Part shown: in pieces, positions 508-7,697 of the stretch | Layout: each line of letters starts with the position of its first letter | Numbering within the stretch: the stretch's first letter is position 1 | Source of the DNA: Candidatus Bathyarchaeia archaeon | Lineage (GTDB): Archaea; Thermoproteota; Bathyarchaeia; Bathyarchaeales; Bathycorpusculaceae | Assembly: GCA_038882655.1 (NCBI GenBank) | Contig: JAVZNT010000005.1 | Coordinates: 1-44,968, forward strand | Length of the DNA stretch: 44,968 nucleotides | Direction: 5' to 3' | Notes under the pieces: model-generated | What the model saw: the letters and a program-made list of their open reading frames with translations, nothing else | Database searches by the model: none | Told to the model about the DNA's origin: nothing | Position numbers and translations under genes: made by a program

Positions 508-870
508 ATGAATAAGAAATTAAGCGTTATAAGCCTAGAAATCGGAGCTTGCGGAGTTTTCTGTGGCTTCTGCAAAGTTTTCAAGCGCATAGAACATCAA
601 TGCCGCGGCTGTAATTGGGTTAACAAAATGTTAAAGTTAAGCAGAGAAGACGGAAAGGGCTGCATATTTTGGGAATGCACACAAAACAAAAAAGTTGAGT
701 GTTGTCTTATATGCGGGGAATTTCCATGCCCAAAGCACTATGACGAAAAGGAGGCCATTTACACTAAACAGGTTTTAGATTCGTGGAAGAGTCTAGATAA
801 AAGCGGACTCACATTTGGAGGAAGAAGAGAGAAGCTTGAATCCCTATTGGAAAAAGGAAAGCAAGCATGA
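508..870 (+). CDS. Cys-rich DUF3795-like metal-binding protein
   Basis: ACGVFCGFC...CRGC...CIFWEC...CCLICGEFPC cysteine pattern. Confidence 0.7.
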   Translation: MNKKLSVISLEIGACGVFCGFCKVFKRIEHQCRGCNWVNKMLKLSREDGKGCIFWECTQNKKVECCLICGEFPCPKHYDEKEAIYTKQVLDSWKSLDKSGLTFGGRREKLESLLEKGKQA

Positions 871-1297: not shown

Positions 1298-1618
1298 TTA
1301 TGCTTTGTGTAGTTTCTTGTAGATTGCTGTTGGAGATTGCGTCACAGTTGGTTGCGGCGTGTTCGTCACTATTGGACGCTTTTGCATATACTTATATCCA
1401 CATTCACAAGCGAAGCCCACCATTTTTCTGCCTCGGTAGATTTCCCGCCATCTTTTTGAGTCGCATTTGGTTGTTTGTTTATGGATTTTCCATAAGAGTC
1501 TTGCCTCGTTTGGCGTTAGCGGCGCATAATGTTTTGCTGATGTGAAGTACCATGTTGCATACGCTAGAAAGCAAATCCATAATGTTATAGCTAATAGTTC
1601 AATCATCTTCTCTACCAC
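1298..1618 (-). CDS. Membrane-anchored hypothetical protein with possible Zn-ribbon
   Basis: N-terminal TM helix; H..C...CECG residues. Confidence 0.65.
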   Translation of the reverse strand: MVEKMIELLAITLWICFLAYATWYFTSAKHYAPLTPNEARLLWKIHKQTTKCDSKRWREIYRGRKMVGFACECGYKYMQKRPIVTNTPQPTVTQSPTAIYKKLHKA

Positions 1619-1737
1619 GTGTATTTTTGTTCAGCACATATTCAATATGTCCATTTATTGACATATCTATTTTCGAAATATACACATCTTACGATATAAG
1701 CATTATCTCAAAAACCGAATACTTGCATAAAAAGCTT

Positions 1738-2208
1738 TTAAAACTGCTTCAAGACATCACTTTTCTCCACGATATAGCCACAATAGTGACACTTTAGGAT
1801 TAAGGGCTCCTCACTTTTAACATAAAACTTTGATTGAACTGGCTCGTTGCTGTTGCTTATACAAGCAGGATTTGCACATTTAACAATGCCCTCAATAACA
1901 TTTGGAAGCTTAACTCGCTGTTTTTCGACAACATTATAGTTTCTTATGATGTTTATGGTTGCATGGGGCGCCAAGAGAGCGATTTTATGTACTTCTTCTG
2001 GTTTTAGTTCTCTACCCTCGATTTTGACTATGTCTTTAACCTTAAACCGCTTGCTTGGAACGTTAATGGCTATGGTGATTATGCGCTTCTCCTTGCCTGT
2101 TATCCCTAAAATTTTAATGACGTCTAAGGCGTGTCCGCCAGTTATGTGGTCTATGACTGTTCCATCCTTAATTTTTGAAACGTAAAGCATTGTTTCGCTT
2201 TCGCTCAT
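1738..2208 (-). CDS. pyrI: Aspartate carbamoyltransferase regulatory subunit
   Basis: GTVIDHI motif; CANPACIS...CHYCG Zn site; SD-like AGGTGA upstream. Confidence 0.97.
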   Translation of the reverse strand: MSESETMLYVSKIKDGTVIDHITGGHALDVIKILGITGKEKRIITIAINVPSKRFKVKDIVKIEGRELKPEEVHKIALLAPHATINIIRNYNVVEKQRVKLPNVIEGIVKCANPACISNSNEPVQSKFYVKSEEPLILKCHYCGYIVEKSDVLKQF

Positions 2209-2393
2209 AAGGCTTACTCACCTTTTAGAACGGTATTGTCGGCGCGGAGATAAAAGGTTTTTATTCTTGGAAGCATCCGTAACTTTAAATTTAACAGCTC
2301 GTGAATGGCTAAATTTGATAGCCCCCTATAGTTTTCTGCTTAACAGAAGTGCGAATAAAAAGTTATTTAAGCGGAACTTGTCGCTTTGTTTAA

Positions 2394-3326
<933 letters not shown>

Positions 3327-3332
3327 GTTTTG

Positions 3333-5525
3333 TTAGAAGCGTTTAAAGGTTGTTAACGTGCCAACAGAACTGCATATTGGACATTTTTGAAGCATGCCAA
3401 ACCAACTTTTGCGGCACTGGCTGCAATGGGTTAGGTTGCGGTTGTACGTGAAAAACCATAGCTTGTAGTCTTCAACAAGCTTTTTTGTAAATGAAAGAAG
3501 CGTTTCTGACGTGTATTCGGTTTCTCCTAGCTCAAAAACTGTTAGGCTTCCGCCAGCAAGCGGATCGTAAAGCTCTTTTTCAATGGCTAGAATTTTTGAT
3601 TGAGTTTCCCAGTTTTGAAGGTTTATTCGGCCGTAGATTGAATAGTGGGGTTTTTCTCTTGTTCCTTGGAAACGAACCTTTGCAATACCGAATCTTTCAA
3701 TGTCTTGTTTTGCCAGCCTTTCAGAGGCCACGGCACACGGCAAAGCGGATGGAATAAGCCTTTTCTCGCGTCTTCCACTTTTTGGTAAGAATTCCAAGAC
3801 GTGTTTTATGATTTCGGAGGCGAATTTTTGGGTCTTCTCGTCTTCGTATATGCTTTTTCCGCTGAGGGCTTCTGAAGCCTCTTTTAATCCAACCAAATTT
3901 ATTAAACGTGCAGCGCCTTCAACTCTGAAGTATTGGTCGCCGTTGGCTGAATGCGTCAAAAATGGGAGAAAGCCTCTTCCCCGCTGTTTTAGAGCTCTAT
4001 ATTTTATTTCTAGGGCTCGTGCCGCCATTTCAAGTCTTTCCCTTAAAAGCGCGGAGAGTTTCCTTTCGTCCTTGCCGCATTCGTAGGCTATCCTTGGCAA
4101 ATTAACTGTTACAAGTCCTAAAATGCCCGTGCGTAGTGTGTCGATTTCCCAGTCTTCTTTGAAATCCGCTTTGAGGACGCTTCCTGACGGGGAGAAAACT
4201 GTGTACTGCTCATTTTTGCCAGAAAGGTTTACGAAGTATGGCATACCTCTTTCTAAGGCTAAGTGATGTGCCTTTAGGAGGATGTCCGCTGCATTATTAT
4301 TTTTGAGGGTTTCTGGGCGGATTTTGACTATGAGTTTTGGGTTTAGAAGCGGTTTTTCAGCGTTTTCTTCCTCAAAGACTTCAAGCAGTAGGGAGGCTAA
4401 AAGCTGGCTTTCGTTGAGATAATCGCCATAACAACCGCCTGCCAAGCCTATGGCGGGCTTATCCGCTAAAAACTCTGGAATTGTCAACTCGAGATTTATG
4501 GAGGCGTTGACATGGTTGCTAACGCTGATAATGAAAAGCCTCAAAGCCTCTTTGAGGGTGTCTTTATCCAAACCTTTCAGGAAGGGCGCAAAAAAAACAT
4601 TGAAGTATTCAAGCACTTGTGTTCCATCGGTTTCCTTTGATGTTTGTAGAAGAATGTTAAGGGTTAGATTTAGGGCGGATTCAAAACTTTTCGGCGGCCT
4701 TATGGACGGCTGGAAAATATTTGAAAGGCTTGGGTCTAAGCCGCTTTTTATGAAGAACCTTAAGTCGTGAATTATTTCGCTTGGTTTCAAAATCCAGTAG
4801 CCTAAACCGTGGAGATGAATCTCGCCTGAAAGGTATGCGTCTGCAATGTCCCTCGGTAACACATTTAAAAGGGTGTACTCTTCAAGGACGTTTCTCCCGA
4901 AATCTTCGCAGACGGAAGACGCGTTAACTGTAGCTTTGCCCTTCAAGAGATAAGCTGAAACGTCGTGCACTGGCAGCCCCAGACGGGTGAGTTTGTGACG
5001 GTATTCCTCTAAGCCCTTTTCAATGAGGATTCCGTTAACAACCTCCCTTACTAATGGAGCCGTCAAATAGCGGATCCTAGCCTTAAGAAGGCGTTTTTCA
5101 GCTTCTTTTGCTATTTTTTGGGCTAGTTCTGGGGGCATTCCAGCCTCCTTAATAAGGCTGTTGGCAATTTTTGTGGTATCAAACTCTTCTAAGGTGAAGC
5201 GGGATGTTCTGACAAGGATTCTCTCTGCTCTTAAACTTCGCTTTTCAATTTCTTCAGCCACGCCAATAACCATCTTGCCCAAATCTGTTAAGCGGTACTT
5301 CTTGGATTCCACATCAGCCTCAATCAAATCCGCCTTAAGCAAAAACTTGAGATGGTAGGCAAAACGACCAGCATCCCTACTAGGGTTCATCTTTAAAAAG
5401 CTCATAAGCTCAGTATAGGAAAGCGGACCATAGTCAAAGAGAGCAGTTAAAATGTTAAGCCTAACAGCTGAAGAAACCGCCTTCAAAACGCGGATTCCCC
5501 GCAGACGCTGATGTTGACTGGACAA
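3333..5525 (-). CDS. ArsR-like wHTH + ATP-cone + class III (NrdD-like) ribonucleotide reductase fold, apparently catalytically dead
   Basis: N-terminal wHTH (LKAVSSAVRLNIL...FAYHLKFLLKADLI); ATP-cone (VRTS...LTAPLVREVVN...TRLGLPVHD); NrdD motifs EIHLH, DTLRTG, VNLPRIAY and C-terminal CxxC/CxxC; catalytic Cys residues and RxxGY absent. Start placed at TTG 5525 after a GGGGGG SD (track start 5612). Confidence 0.85.
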   Translation of the reverse strand: MSSQHQRLRGIRVLKAVSSAVRLNILTALFDYGPLSYTELMSFLKMNPSRDAGRFAYHLKFLLKADLIEADVESKKYRLTDLGKMVIGVAEEIEKRSLRAERILVRTSRFTLEEFDTTKIANSLIKEAGMPPELAQKIAKEAEKRLLKARIRYLTAPLVREVVNGILIEKGLEEYRHKLTRLGLPVHDVSAYLLKGKATVNASSVCEDFGRNVLEEYTLLNVLPRDIADAYLSGEIHLHGLGYWILKPSEIIHDLRFFIKSGLDPSLSNIFQPSIRPPKSFESALNLTLNILLQTSKETDGTQVLEYFNVFFAPFLKGLDKDTLKEALRLFIISVSNHVNASINLELTIPEFLADKPAIGLAGGCYGDYLNESQLLASLLLEVFEEENAEKPLLNPKLIVKIRPETLKNNNAADILLKAHHLALERGMPYFVNLSGKNEQYTVFSPSGSVLKADFKEDWEIDTLRTGILGLVTVNLPRIAYECGKDERKLSALLRERLEMAARALEIKYRALKQRGRGFLPFLTHSANGDQYFRVEGAARLINLVGLKEASEALSGKSIYEDEKTQKFASEIIKHVLEFLPKSGRREKRLIPSALPCAVASERLAKQDIERFGIAKVRFQGTREKPHYSIYGRINLQNWETQSKILAIEKELYDPLAGGSLTVFELGETEYTSETLLSFTKKLVEDYKLWFFTYNRNLTHCSQCRKSWFGMLQKCPICSSVGTLTTFKRF

Positions 5526-5642
5526 GTCTTCTAACCCCCCTAACACTTGGATAGTTATAGCCCCGGATAAGGGTTTAAAGGTTAAGAAAACACCTTTATT
5601 AAACCTACACAAAACTAAAAATGTGATGCATAAAAACCGAGA

Positions 5643-5717
5643 GGGGCTGTCGGCTAGCTTGGTCTAGGCTCTGAGCCTCGGGCGCTCGGGACCCCGGTTC
5701 AAATCCGGGCAGCCCCA
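5643..5717 (+). tRNA. tRNA-Pro (anticodon CGG), no intron
   Basis: Acceptor stem GGGGCTG/CAGCCCC, anticodon arm TGAGC-CT CGG GC-GCTCG, T-loop GGTTCAAATCC. Confidence 0.95.
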
Positions 5718-5740
5718 CTACAAGCTGTTTTCGCACCGCC

Positions 5741-6727
5741 TTACGTTATGAAGTGTTTGTAGATCGGGTGTCCCTTAAAGCGTAGCGTCGTCTCTGATTT
5801 CTCTATTGTTCCGCTTGGAAGCCTTATACATAAAGAGCTTACTACAGCCCCGTTTGAGATGAAGCGCACTCCGTCTAGGAGTTCGCCTTTCGTCACGCCA
5901 GAAGCACAAAAAACCAGCTCACTGCCCCTAGCCAACTCATCCTGATCATAAGTTTTGTCCACATCCACGCCTTCAGCTTCCAATCTCTTAAGCCTTTTCG
6001 GGTCATCGCTTTTGTCTCTCCAAACCCTGACAAGCATTGTTCCACCCAAACATTTCACGGCTGTGGCAGCTATGGTTGCCTCTGGTCCAGCACCAGCGCC
6101 TATCAGTAAGTCTACACCCGAACCTTGAATGCATGTTGCCACCGCTGCCGCAATGTCCCCGTCTGGTATTAGGATTATCCTTACACCAATTTTTCTAAGC
6201 GTCTGAAGAATTTCCATGTGCCTCTCCCTCTCAAGCATTATCACTGTAAAGTTTTCTATTGACAACCCCTTTGCCTCTGCCACTGTTCTAACAATTTCTT
6301 CTATTGGCATTTTCAGCGAAATCTTTCCCAAGGCATGGTGGTCCGCCGCCACCTTAAAATAGTAACCATCGTCTGGGAGAACTTGCAAACAGCCTTTCGG
6401 TGCACATGCCAAAGCGGAAATGGCATCTTTTCTCCCCTTTGAGGCTGCTGTTGTTCCGTCAACAGGGTCTATTACAAACTCAACTCTTGGTCCTCTTCCA
6501 GTTCCAACTTTCTCCCTGCGGGAAAAGGCTGGGGCATTGTCTTTAGGTCCTTCGCATACAATTACTTCGCCATCCACATCCGTCTGGGCTAAGACAGCCC
6601 TTGAAAATTGAACAGCCTTCTCATCTATCAAATTCGGGTTTCCTTGACCGATATGGAGTGCCGCGCCAACAGCCGCTGCAATTGTAATTCGCGTTAAAGA
6701 AGGCGCCAAAGCCCTTAAAGAGACCAC
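5741..6727 (-). CDS. glpX: Fructose-1,6-bisphosphatase class II (GlpX)
   Basis: EGPKDNAP, IDPVDGT, LERERH, PDGDIAAA and SGVTKGELLDGV motifs. Confidence 0.9.
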   Translation of the reverse strand: MVSLRALAPSLTRITIAAAVGAALHIGQGNPNLIDEKAVQFSRAVLAQTDVDGEVIVCEGPKDNAPAFSRREKVGTGRGPRVEFVIDPVDGTTAASKGRKDAISALACAPKGCLQVLPDDGYYFKVAADHHALGKISLKMPIEEIVRTVAEAKGLSIENFTVIMLERERHMEILQTLRKIGVRIILIPDGDIAAAVATCIQGSGVDLLIGAGAGPEATIAATAVKCLGGTMLVRVWRDKSDDPKRLKRLEAEGVDVDKTYDQDELARGSELVFCASGVTKGELLDGVRFISNGAVVSSLCIRLPSGTIEKSETTLRFKGHPIYKHFIT

Positions 6728-7001: not shown

Positions 7002-7697
7002 ATGAGTAAGGTGAAGAGCATATTCGCAGAGGTTCGCAAAGCCGGAAGGAAGCACTTGTTAGAGATGGAAGCAAAAAGCATGTGCATGGAGTATGGCATT
7101 CCGGTTACCCGGTTTAGGTTGGCTAAAAGCGAAGCCGAGGCCGTCAAATTTGCAGAGGAGACAGGCTACCCAGTCGTTTTAAAAATTGTTTCGCCAGACA
7201 TTATTCACAAGTCTGATGTTGGAGGAGTAATGCTTAACCTTAAAAACGCAAAAGAGGTGCGAAAAGCCTACAAACAAATAATGGAAAATGTGAAAAAACA
7301 CAAGAAAGACGCCAAAATTTTAGGCGTGCTCGTACAGGAAATGGCTCCACCCTCAACAGAAGTTATAGTTGGAGCCATCAAGGATCCGCAGTTTGGCCAC
7401 GCCTTAATGTTTGGGCTGGGAGGCGTCTTCGTAGAGGTTTTGAAAGATGTCACCTTCAGAATCGTGCCAATAATCGAGGAAGAAGCCCGTGAAATGATCA
7501 GCGAGGTTAAGGCGTACCCGCTCTTGAAAGGGTATAGGGGGATGCCGCCGGCAGACATAAACGCCATAGTGCAAATTCTCTTAAAGACTTCAAGGCTTGT
7601 TTCTGAACATCCTGAAATCAAGGAGCTTGACCTAAACCCAATAATGGTGTACGAGAAAGGAGCAAAAACAGTAGACGCGAGAATAATTTTAGAATAA
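7002..7697 (+). CDS. ADP-forming acyl-CoA synthetase (acetate-CoA ligase) beta subunit, ATP-grasp
   Basis: GYPVVLKIVSPDIIHKSDVGGV, FGLGGVFVEVLKD and ELDLNP motifs. Confidence 0.92.
   Translation: MSKVKSIFAEVRKAGRKHLLEMEAKSMCMEYGIPVTRFRLAKSEAEAVKFAEETGYPVVLKIVSPDIIHKSDVGGVMLNLKNAKEVRKAYKQIMENVKKHKKDAKILGVLVQEMAPPSTEVIVGAIKDPQFGHALMFGLGGVFVEVLKDVTFRIVPIIEEEAREMISEVKAYPLLKGYRGMPPADINAIVQILLKTSRLVSEHPEIKELDLNPIMVYEKGAKTVDARIILE

Follow-up and report, generated by a model that had tools for sequence, protein, structure and literature searches.

A winged helix-turn-helix protein built on a catalytically dead anaerobic ribonucleotide reductase, a candidate nucleotide-responsive regulator of Bathyarchaeia

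Contig JAVZNT010000005.1 of a Candidatus Bathyarchaeia archaeon (assembly GCA_038882655.1) was analyzed over a stretch of 44,968 nt, referred to as the window. It contains a gene for a 730 aa protein that resembles the class III (anaerobic) ribonucleotide reductase (RNR) NrdD and carries a winged helix-turn-helix (wHTH) domain at its N-terminus. By alignment this NrdD-like protein lacks the first catalytic Cys, the thiyl-radical Cys, the Asn and Glu of the active site and the glycyl-radical loop in full, and it is almost certainly not a working RNR. With a probability of roughly 0.6 we read it as a non-catalytic, nucleotide-responsive transcription regulator that would be derived from class III NrdD and would tune nucleotide-synthesis genes.

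The domain order put forward in the initial annotation of this DNA, an ArsR-like wHTH followed by an ATP-cone, an NrdD-like barrel and a CxxC..CxxC zinc site in one uninterrupted frame of about 730 codons, is in accordance with the results from Pfam and Foldseek (Table 1). With 32.5 bits the N-terminal domain exceeds the Pfam cut-off of 27.6 for DUF7347 (PF24038), and with 22.8 bits it lies marginally above that of 22 for HTH_5; the NCBIfam model HTH_metalloreg gave 24.5 bits, under its cut-off of 55. A near-invariant stretch, DAG[KR]FAYHL, is located inside the winged helix. The barrel matches NRDD (PF13597) over profile positions 9-532 of 562 with an E value of 2e-66, and the NrdD equivalog of NCBIfam, TIGR02487, scores 251.4 bits, below its cut-off of 326.35. 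The AlphaFold2 model of the protein, built on 66 family members, exhibits a mean pLDDT (predicted local distance difference test) of 89.7 and a pTM (predicted template modeling score) of 0.80. In the comparison of this model with the PDB by Foldseek the best 36 matches listed were all NrdD structures, headed by those of S. thermophilus, P. copri, T. maritima and phage T4, and other glycyl-radical enzymes followed far behind. A longer minus-strand frame extends to position 5612. The start at 5525 is favored because homologues begin there and a Shine-Dalgarno-like GGGGGG run stands just 5' of this TTG.

The catalytic positions were read from a total alignment of 111 sequences, composed of 109 family proteins and two references. 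These were E. coli NrdD from the K-12 record, in whose sequence the motifs at C175, C384 and G681 were confirmed, and, as the nearest relative from a phage (26.5% identity, E 6e-38), NrdD of Methanobacterium virus PhiF1. Compared to both references, the PxC cysteine, the thiyl cysteine and the glycyl-radical loop are all gone, just as had been claimed from the sequence, and the nucleotide coordinates given there for KPSE and SPSGS were exact. The protein ends 12 residues past the last CxxC, the place where live NrdDs go on with the R[IV]xGY glycyl-radical loop. An HMMER alignment to P. copri NrdD places I468 at the position of the active-site Asn and A598 at that of the Glu of the PAE motif, a mapping that depends on our own count of the tag offset in the 8p23 chain. 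The residue roles used for these two positions are those published for P. copri NrdD in the sections of PMC11226230 drawn on here. No NrdG activase reached the cut-off in the genome of the window, a 1.02 Mb assembly that is 84% complete; the best scores were 48.6 bits (cut-off 131) and 22.5 bits (cut-off 126). The possibility that a separate small glycyl-radical protein completes the truncated enzyme, the spare-part manner in which GrcA completes pyruvate formate-lyase, was set aside without a search, as both cysteines are missing too.

The losses are shared by the relatives. In 120 full-length close homologues (59-100% identity) the position of the first Cys is occupied by E (107), Q (9), D (3) or S (1) and in no case by Cys. 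The thiyl position holds C in 49, F in 31, S in 17, Y in 16, G in 5 and I and V in one each; it is not kept as Cys in the family and varies freely. An RxxG[YF] motif within the last 40 residues occurs in none of the 120, and 119 of them end 12-18 residues past the last CxxC. In a wider set of representatives at 50% identity, with 1907 matches at E <= 0.001 and 396 at E <= 1e-30, the catalytic losses extend to proteins of about 25% identity. All wHTH-bearing representatives in the 111-sequence alignment are devoid of the catalytic residues, and live NrdDs from the same match list retain all three catalytic features. The C-terminal end comes in two forms among 66 wHTH proteins, short as in the window (27) or long and degenerate with a recognizably decayed glycyl-radical domain (39). 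The loss is common to homologues in Bathyarchaeia and in a cluster labeled Nitrososphaerales, a comparison that the initial annotation had suggested for Bathyarchaeia and Nitrososphaeria.

A FastTree tree of 529 barrel columns, rooted arbitrarily on E. coli, unites the wHTH proteins and P0185, a dead protein with two ATP-cones, in a clade of 85 tips with a support of 1.0 and no live NrdD within; the node that holds the wHTH proteins alone has a support of only 0.15. This topology suggests one origin for the wHTH clade plus P0185. Dead NrdD-like proteins occur elsewhere as well (P0185, P0203, P0184, P0214, P0217, P0225, P0234, P0243, P0255 and others), and P0185 and P0203 possess two ATP-cones and no wHTH. 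Apart from P0185, which groups with the wHTH clade, these dead proteins form clades outside it, which points to several independent losses of the radical machinery among NrdD-like proteins. Four true NrdDs (P0179, P0183, P0202, P0262), extended at the N-terminus by about 90 residues, were considered as live wHTH intermediates and rejected, since the extension is a second ATP-cone. A second NrdD-like copy without wHTH was observed in a genome of another family (G183, L118:8535-10463, plus strand), where it lies between the wHTH gene and pyrB and shares 32% identity over residues 105-722. Many live NrdDs are unusually long, with 1100-1700 aa and matches split into several stretches (P0175-P0178, P0196, P0204, P0209), and the nrdJ frames of two relatives (G330:C10 and G282:C21; 1055 and 1062 codons) are split likewise. 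Such split matches are as expected for inteins, which these overlong frames may contain.

Working reductases were found in the same genomes. The window gene is the sole NRDD match of its own genome, and the separate intact RNR for which the initial annotation had suggested looking is present there as a B12-dependent nrdJ with its own canonical ATP-cone (986 bits, cut-off 961). In 27 of 29 high-quality relatives a second, full-profile NrdD with 472-672 bits occurs. Both MCCR and RVVGY were read in 25 of the 28 long nrdD frames of relatives; the remaining three have RVTGY, and their thiyl loop was missed by the simple pattern. A class I/II-type barrel is present in 15 of the 29. The other 14 are without a class I/II RNR barrel at E <= 1e-20 and seemingly rely on the class III enzyme alone (G169, G190, G155, G077, G234, G366, G354, G210, G258, G318, G336, G300, G276, G109), the opposite of the window genome with nrdJ only.

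The gene neighborhood makes a strong case for a role of the predicted regulator in nucleotide metabolism, because four different nucleotide-synthesis partners recur across deep lineages and the opposite flank is unconserved. In a sample of 80 Bathyarchaeia loci, pyrB is found in 79, and the remaining locus ends with the NrdD-like gene; pyrI is found in 30. In 78 loci pyrB and the NrdD-like gene converge; their stop codons are a median of 7 nt apart, and in 72 pairs the distance does not exceed 60 nt. On the other flank, glpX recurs in one of the 80 loci. A second sample covered 20 loci from 18 other families with proteins of 29-45% identity. There, pyrB is convergent in seven loci, pyrI is convergent and archaeal pyrH divergent (193-200 bits, cut-off 158) in two, and nrdJ is adjacent in a further two. 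In family f15 (61 genomes, 27 genera) the N-terminal module occurs in 60 genomes. In 53 of these nrdJ follows as the next gene on the same strand, as judged from a class II barrel whose start lies some 3.0-3.1 kb downstream. In the other seven it is divergent (one), on another contig (five) or represented by a partial RNR record only (one). Live nrdD is located directly downstream in all four genomes of family f5. The position beside pyrB and pyrI, which had been taken as fitting a reader of nucleotide pools, is thus kept in the case of pyrB far beyond background, and relatives adjoin nrdJ, nrdD, pyrH and pyrI.

Taken together, the protein is most likely an enzyme-derived, ATP-cone-bearing regulator. 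In the mechanism that we propose, the catalytically dead NrdD barrel would be retained as the sensor body of a transcription regulator. The wHTH would bind promoter DNA, probably as a dimer formed via the barrel as in NrdD, and a nucleotide bound at the ATP-cone, perhaps also at fossil sites of the barrel, would alter the oligomeric state or the DNA affinity. The outcome would be a tuned transcription of the genes for pyrimidine and deoxyribonucleotide synthesis. For the lineage of the window, the main targets are expected to be the genes of pyrimidine de novo synthesis, nrdJ or both, since pyrB/pyrI is the persistent partner and NrdR already sits on the nrdD operon of relatives.

Several observations weigh against this interpretation. 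First, DNA binding and ligand are both predictions from sequence. The cone falls just short of the Pfam ATP-cone cut-off (25.5 bits, cut-off 25.8), and the canonical KRDG reads RTSR, with Thr-Ser in place of the canonical Lys-Arg. In the sections of PMC11226230 considered, Lys7 and Arg8 of P. copri NrdD are described as touching the phosphates. The canonical cones of live nrdD, nrdJ and NrdR in these genomes show [KR]KRDG, and in the stretch VRTSR V105 and R106 are invariant and S108 is nearly so among 66 diverse members of the family. From this alignment the cone is conserved yet altered. Phosphates might be bound instead by the arginines that immediately flank Thr-Ser, or the cone might have a different ligand; ATP or dATP as ligand of an RTSR-type cone is an assumption because of the changed motif. 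Second, pyrB and the NrdD-like gene converge in the window, whereas a regulator and its target are usually arranged divergently or in tandem. Among the 20 loci from other families, seven are without a neighbor from nucleotide metabolism and two have a divergent argF. Related genomes are moreover not independent, and the true number of independent cases is smaller than the synteny counts suggest.

Third, no operator common to the promoters of the NrdD-like gene, pyrB, pyrI and nrdJ was found by a word search, which could miss a degenerate operator. For this search 72 upstream regions of the NrdD-like gene were aligned, and strand-collapsed 7- and 8-mers were counted in these and in 74 upstream regions of pyrB. 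No word was common to more than about 15% of both sets. What each set displayed was a core promoter of its own: it reads AGTTTAAA in 45 of the 72 regions of the NrdD-like gene and GTTATTTA in 47 of the 74 of pyrB, and it is GAAAACTTTATAT-like for nrdJ. The conserved core upstream of the window gene is probably a BRE/TATA element (BRE, transcription factor B recognition element), and no operator is claimed for it. In the own genome the upstream regions of nrdJ and of the NrdD-like gene and the pyrI-pyrB spacer were compared. In relatives the upstream regions of 24 live nrdD, 14 nrdJ and 16 NrdD-like genes were read; only 16 of the 29 loci of relatives held an NrdD-like frame of at least 500 aa.

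Fourth, a true NrdR coexists with the NrdD-like protein. TIGR00244 (NrdR) was matched above its cut-off in 24 of the 25 other sampled genomes of the window's family and in none of 376 sampled genomes elsewhere in the phylum. This small protein became visible through its C-terminal end upstream of live nrdD. The open reading frame at L170:701-1147 (plus strand) consists of a CxxC...CxxC head and a canonical cone, that is, a canonical nrdR (Zn ribbon and ATP-cone) overlapping the start of live nrdD; across the 24 genomes TIGR00244 scores 149-163 bits. Coordinates of both genes were at hand for 23 genomes of the window's family, and in 22 of them nrdR immediately precedes live nrdD. The nrdR-nrdD operon looks bacterial-type and acquired by one archaeal family. 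The own genome contains no TIGR00244 match anywhere, the window gene included, and the own genome and one relative are without both NrdR and live nrdD.

The functional analogy to NrdR proposed in the initial annotation can consequently be retained in part only. Because NrdR coexists in the window's family, the dead reductase is, as judged from these matches, not a plain replacement of NrdR in this lineage. Outside of the family, the distribution is complementary to that of NrdR and fits an analogous role there. The same holds for the larger idea of a pseudo-enzyme regulator that reads nucleotides: all of its computable predictions were borne out, and the non-canonical cone and the coexisting NrdR limit the support for it.

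The loci that lack a nucleotide-metabolism neighbor, the two with argF and the non-canonical cone would suit a transcription factor whose ligand and regulon are unrelated to nucleotide pools, with neighborhoods that are merely inherited synteny. We consider this unlikely, as four nucleotide-synthesis partners recur among proteins of only 29-45% identity next to an unconserved opposite flank. A further explanation is a nucleotide-binding regulator that acts on proteins or RNA, such as aspartate carbamoyltransferase, RNR or an mRNA, and uses the wHTH for those contacts. The tight, conserved but convergent pairing with pyrB and the missing common operator point in this direction. In contrast, the N-terminal domain scores above the cut-offs of DNA-binding wHTH families, and the partner gene varies by lineage (pyrB, pyrH/pyrI, nrdJ, nrdD), which is explained more easily by rewired promoters than by rewired protein contacts. 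A target of this kind is improbable in our view.

The selective constraint on the gene bears on the remaining explanations. Compared to the closest locus (L006), the nonsynonymous rate dN is 0.076 and the synonymous rate dS 0.536, a ratio of 0.14, with 0.10 for the wHTH (residues 1-100), 0.11 for the cone and 0.155 for the barrel. According to these ratios all three parts are under purifying selection, and the shared loss under such selection, proposed as a check in the initial annotation, is found throughout the 120 close homologues, with neither a first Cys nor an RxxGY motif in any of them. Constraint on the barrel would also be expected if the old barrel had acquired a new, non-radical chemistry, e.g. 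on a nucleotide, with wHTH and cone as accessory or moonlighting parts of the enzyme. Invariant or near-invariant barrel positions (N475, P477, R478, G546, E549, R603, D608, Y628, G659) support this view. However, most of them are the same or similar in live solved NrdDs, which suggests a part in the fold or in holding a nucleotide and not in a new active site. The residues around the former active site are free to vary. In addition, the wHTH, the ATP-cone and the linker to the barrel (to about residue 190) form the best-conserved region of the family, ahead of the barrel itself. We therefore give new chemistry little credit. A decaying nrdD pseudogene or allele, open only by chance, might be suspected from the loss of every catalytic residue and from the 49 of 120 homologues with Cys at the thiyl position, which could resemble a recent loss, but it is refuted in practice by family-wide conservation: the recurrence of the same losses and shortened end in each of the 120 close homologues and in more distant representatives with as little as about 25% identity, the ratio of 0.14, the separate live nrdD of relatives and the uninterrupted frame in at least 599 relatives.

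Beyond the regulator favored above, a more general scheme can be sketched that we put forward only tentatively and regard as less likely than not. The protein might be a general nucleotide-supply regulator in a large part of the phylum (Bathyarchaeia and ammonia oxidizers), whose variant cone, and perhaps old pockets, would read the pools and whose targets (pyrB/pyrI with pyrH, nrdJ, nrdD) would be rewired by lineage. In the window's family NrdR would then govern class III reduction and the NrdD-like protein pyrimidine de novo synthesis. The tail-to-tail arrangement with pyrB, nearly without a gap, may have a function of its own, e.g. by overlapping 3' ends or transcriptional interference.

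The features of the window mentioned so far are compiled in Table 1 together with the neighboring genes. The tRNA gene upstream recurs in about a third of related loci, its 3' end being found in 24 of 72 upstream regions. Two Cys-rich open reading frames without an NCBIfam match were also noticed. One, of 106 aa, lies beside pyrI (1298-1618, minus strand) with a hydrophobic N-terminus and a Cys-rich C-terminus, and occupies the same place in 21 of 80 loci. The other, of 120 aa with several CxxC pairs (508-870, plus strand), recurs in only one of 80 related loci. Among the RNA runs on record none holds the stretch. Contigs of two runs labeled metatranscriptomic, flagged as 'probably DNA', cover parts of the gene, and nothing was drawn from them. 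A run that contains 0.79 of the sampled words of window positions 1700-5800 bears the label hot springs metagenome; this DNA may have come from that very sample, and the run gives no independent support.

Table 1. Coordinates of the NrdD-like gene, its parts and its neighbors in the window.
Feature	Position	Strand	Remarks
Gene for wHTH, ATP-cone, dead NrdD barrel and Zn ribbon	3333..5525	-	730 aa; TTG at 5525, last codon ends 3336, stop 3333-3335
Winged helix-turn-helix, DUF7347 / ArsR-type HTH_5	5262..5489	-	residues 13-88
Divergent ATP-cone	5001..5213	-	residues 105-175
NrdD-type ten-stranded barrel without radical machinery	3357..4922	-	residues 202-723
KPSE; E250 at first catalytic Cys position (E. 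coli C175, strand 1)	4776..4787	-	alignment to live NrdDs
SPSGS; S449 at thiyl-radical Cys position (E. coli C384, finger loop)	4179..4193	-	alignment to live NrdDs
Cys4 zinc ribbon C701, C704, C715, C718	3372..3425	-	invariant in 66 diverse family members
Conserved promoter core CTTTAAACCC, TTTAAAC box	5571..5580	-	GTTTAAA (canonical 7-mer form) in 60/72 homologous upstream regions
pyrB, aspartate carbamoyltransferase catalytic chain	2400..3326	+	convergent; stop 6 nt from stop of NrdD-like gene
pyrI, aspartate carbamoyltransferase regulatory chain	1738..2208	-	divergent from pyrB
tRNA-Pro(CGG)	5643..5718	+	divergent from NrdD-like gene
glpX, class II fructose-bisphosphatase	5741-6727	-	264 bits, cut-off 259
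ADP-forming acyl-CoA ligase beta-type domain protein	7002-7697	+	ordinary neighbor

To estimate the spread of the family, species genomes were scanned with a pattern for relatives, and the counts refer to the candidates listed. Relatives are encoded in an uninterrupted frame in at least 599 of the 600 candidate stretches listed. Of the titles of the best 80 relatives, 78 name Bathyarchaeota, Bathyarchaeia or Bathycorpusculum, one an 'uncultured archaeon' and one a 'Nitrososphaerota archaeon'. The 200-residue N-terminal module is present in 288 of 401 sampled genomes of the phylum, where the weakest matches may represent a cone or a wHTH alone. Its occurrence differs sharply by family, with 56/56, 31/32, 24/24 and 17/17 genomes in some examples compared to 0/23, 0/12 and 0/15 in others. 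The 150 module matches listed have E values of at most 8e-48 and open frames of 446-1096 codons, and one distant cluster is labeled Nitrososphaerales by NCBI. Judged from these counts, the family is near-universal in Bathyarchaeia and occurs in several other families of the phylum, including the cluster labeled Nitrososphaerales. This order includes aerobic ammonia oxidizers, in which an oxygen-sensitive reductase would make little sense. From the cluster label we infer that many carriers are ammonia oxidizers.

In the databases the protein is named 'anaerobic ribonucleoside-triphosphate reductase' or 'ArsR family transcriptional regulator'. The mislabeling as nrdD, predicted at the outset, has indeed taken place. 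The former name wrongly implies an oxygen-sensitive enzyme and anaerobic synthesis of deoxyribonucleoside triphosphates, and it is most misleading for the Nitrososphaerales cluster if its carriers are indeed aerobic ammonia oxidizers. Searches of the literature yielded no description of the family. In the sections of the RNR evolution papers PMC4390871 and PMC9531940 covered here, wHTH-fused or dead NrdDs are not mentioned; the sequence tables of RNR phylogeny papers may list these proteins.

To our knowledge, it is not known how the supply of DNA and RNA precursors is controlled in most archaea. The bacterial solution, NrdR, turned up in a single family within the sample of 401 genomes from the phylum. 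A protein that occurs in most sampled genomes beside key genes makes the question of precursor supply testable with a single purified protein. If many of the carriers are ammonia oxidizers, they also matter for the global nitrogen cycle. Should the proposed function hold true, the protein would clearly exemplify the reuse of a radical enzyme as a sensor.

In comparison to known systems, the protein shares with NrdD (PF13597; TIGR02487) the barrel fold, the ATP-cone in front of it and the C-terminal Cys4 zinc site. Unlike NrdD, it begins with an additional wHTH, remains below the equivalog cut-off and is devoid of the glycyl-radical loop, the thiyl Cys, the first Cys and the Asn and Glu of the active site. 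With NrdR, the bacterial RNR repressor made of a Zn ribbon and an ATP-cone (TIGR00244), it has in common that a DNA-binding domain is joined to an ATP-cone. In addition, the NrdD-like gene of relatives is found directly upstream of an RNR gene (53 of 60 f15 genomes), and Streptomyces nrdR lies upstream of nrdJ in the same manner. In contrast to NrdR, the window protein possesses a winged helix in place of the zinc ribbon, a cone without KRDG and an attached dead enzyme of 520 residues. The N-terminal 90 residues match HTH_5 and DUF7347 and are in this respect similar to ArsR/SmtB and DUF7347 proteins; here, however, the domain is not a small stand-alone metal sensor as in ArsR/SmtB but heads a multidomain protein of 730 residues. 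The retention of an enzyme fold as the ligand-sensing body of a gene regulator has parallels in PyrR, a homologue of uracil phosphoribosyltransferase that regulates the pyr genes of bacteria, binds RNA and keeps its enzyme activity, and in MocR/GabR, in which a wHTH is fused to an aminotransferase fold. PyrR also shares the tie to pyrimidine synthesis. The folds of both are unrelated to that of the NrdD-like protein, and we know of no PyrR or MocR/GabR family member that is derived from a radical enzyme.

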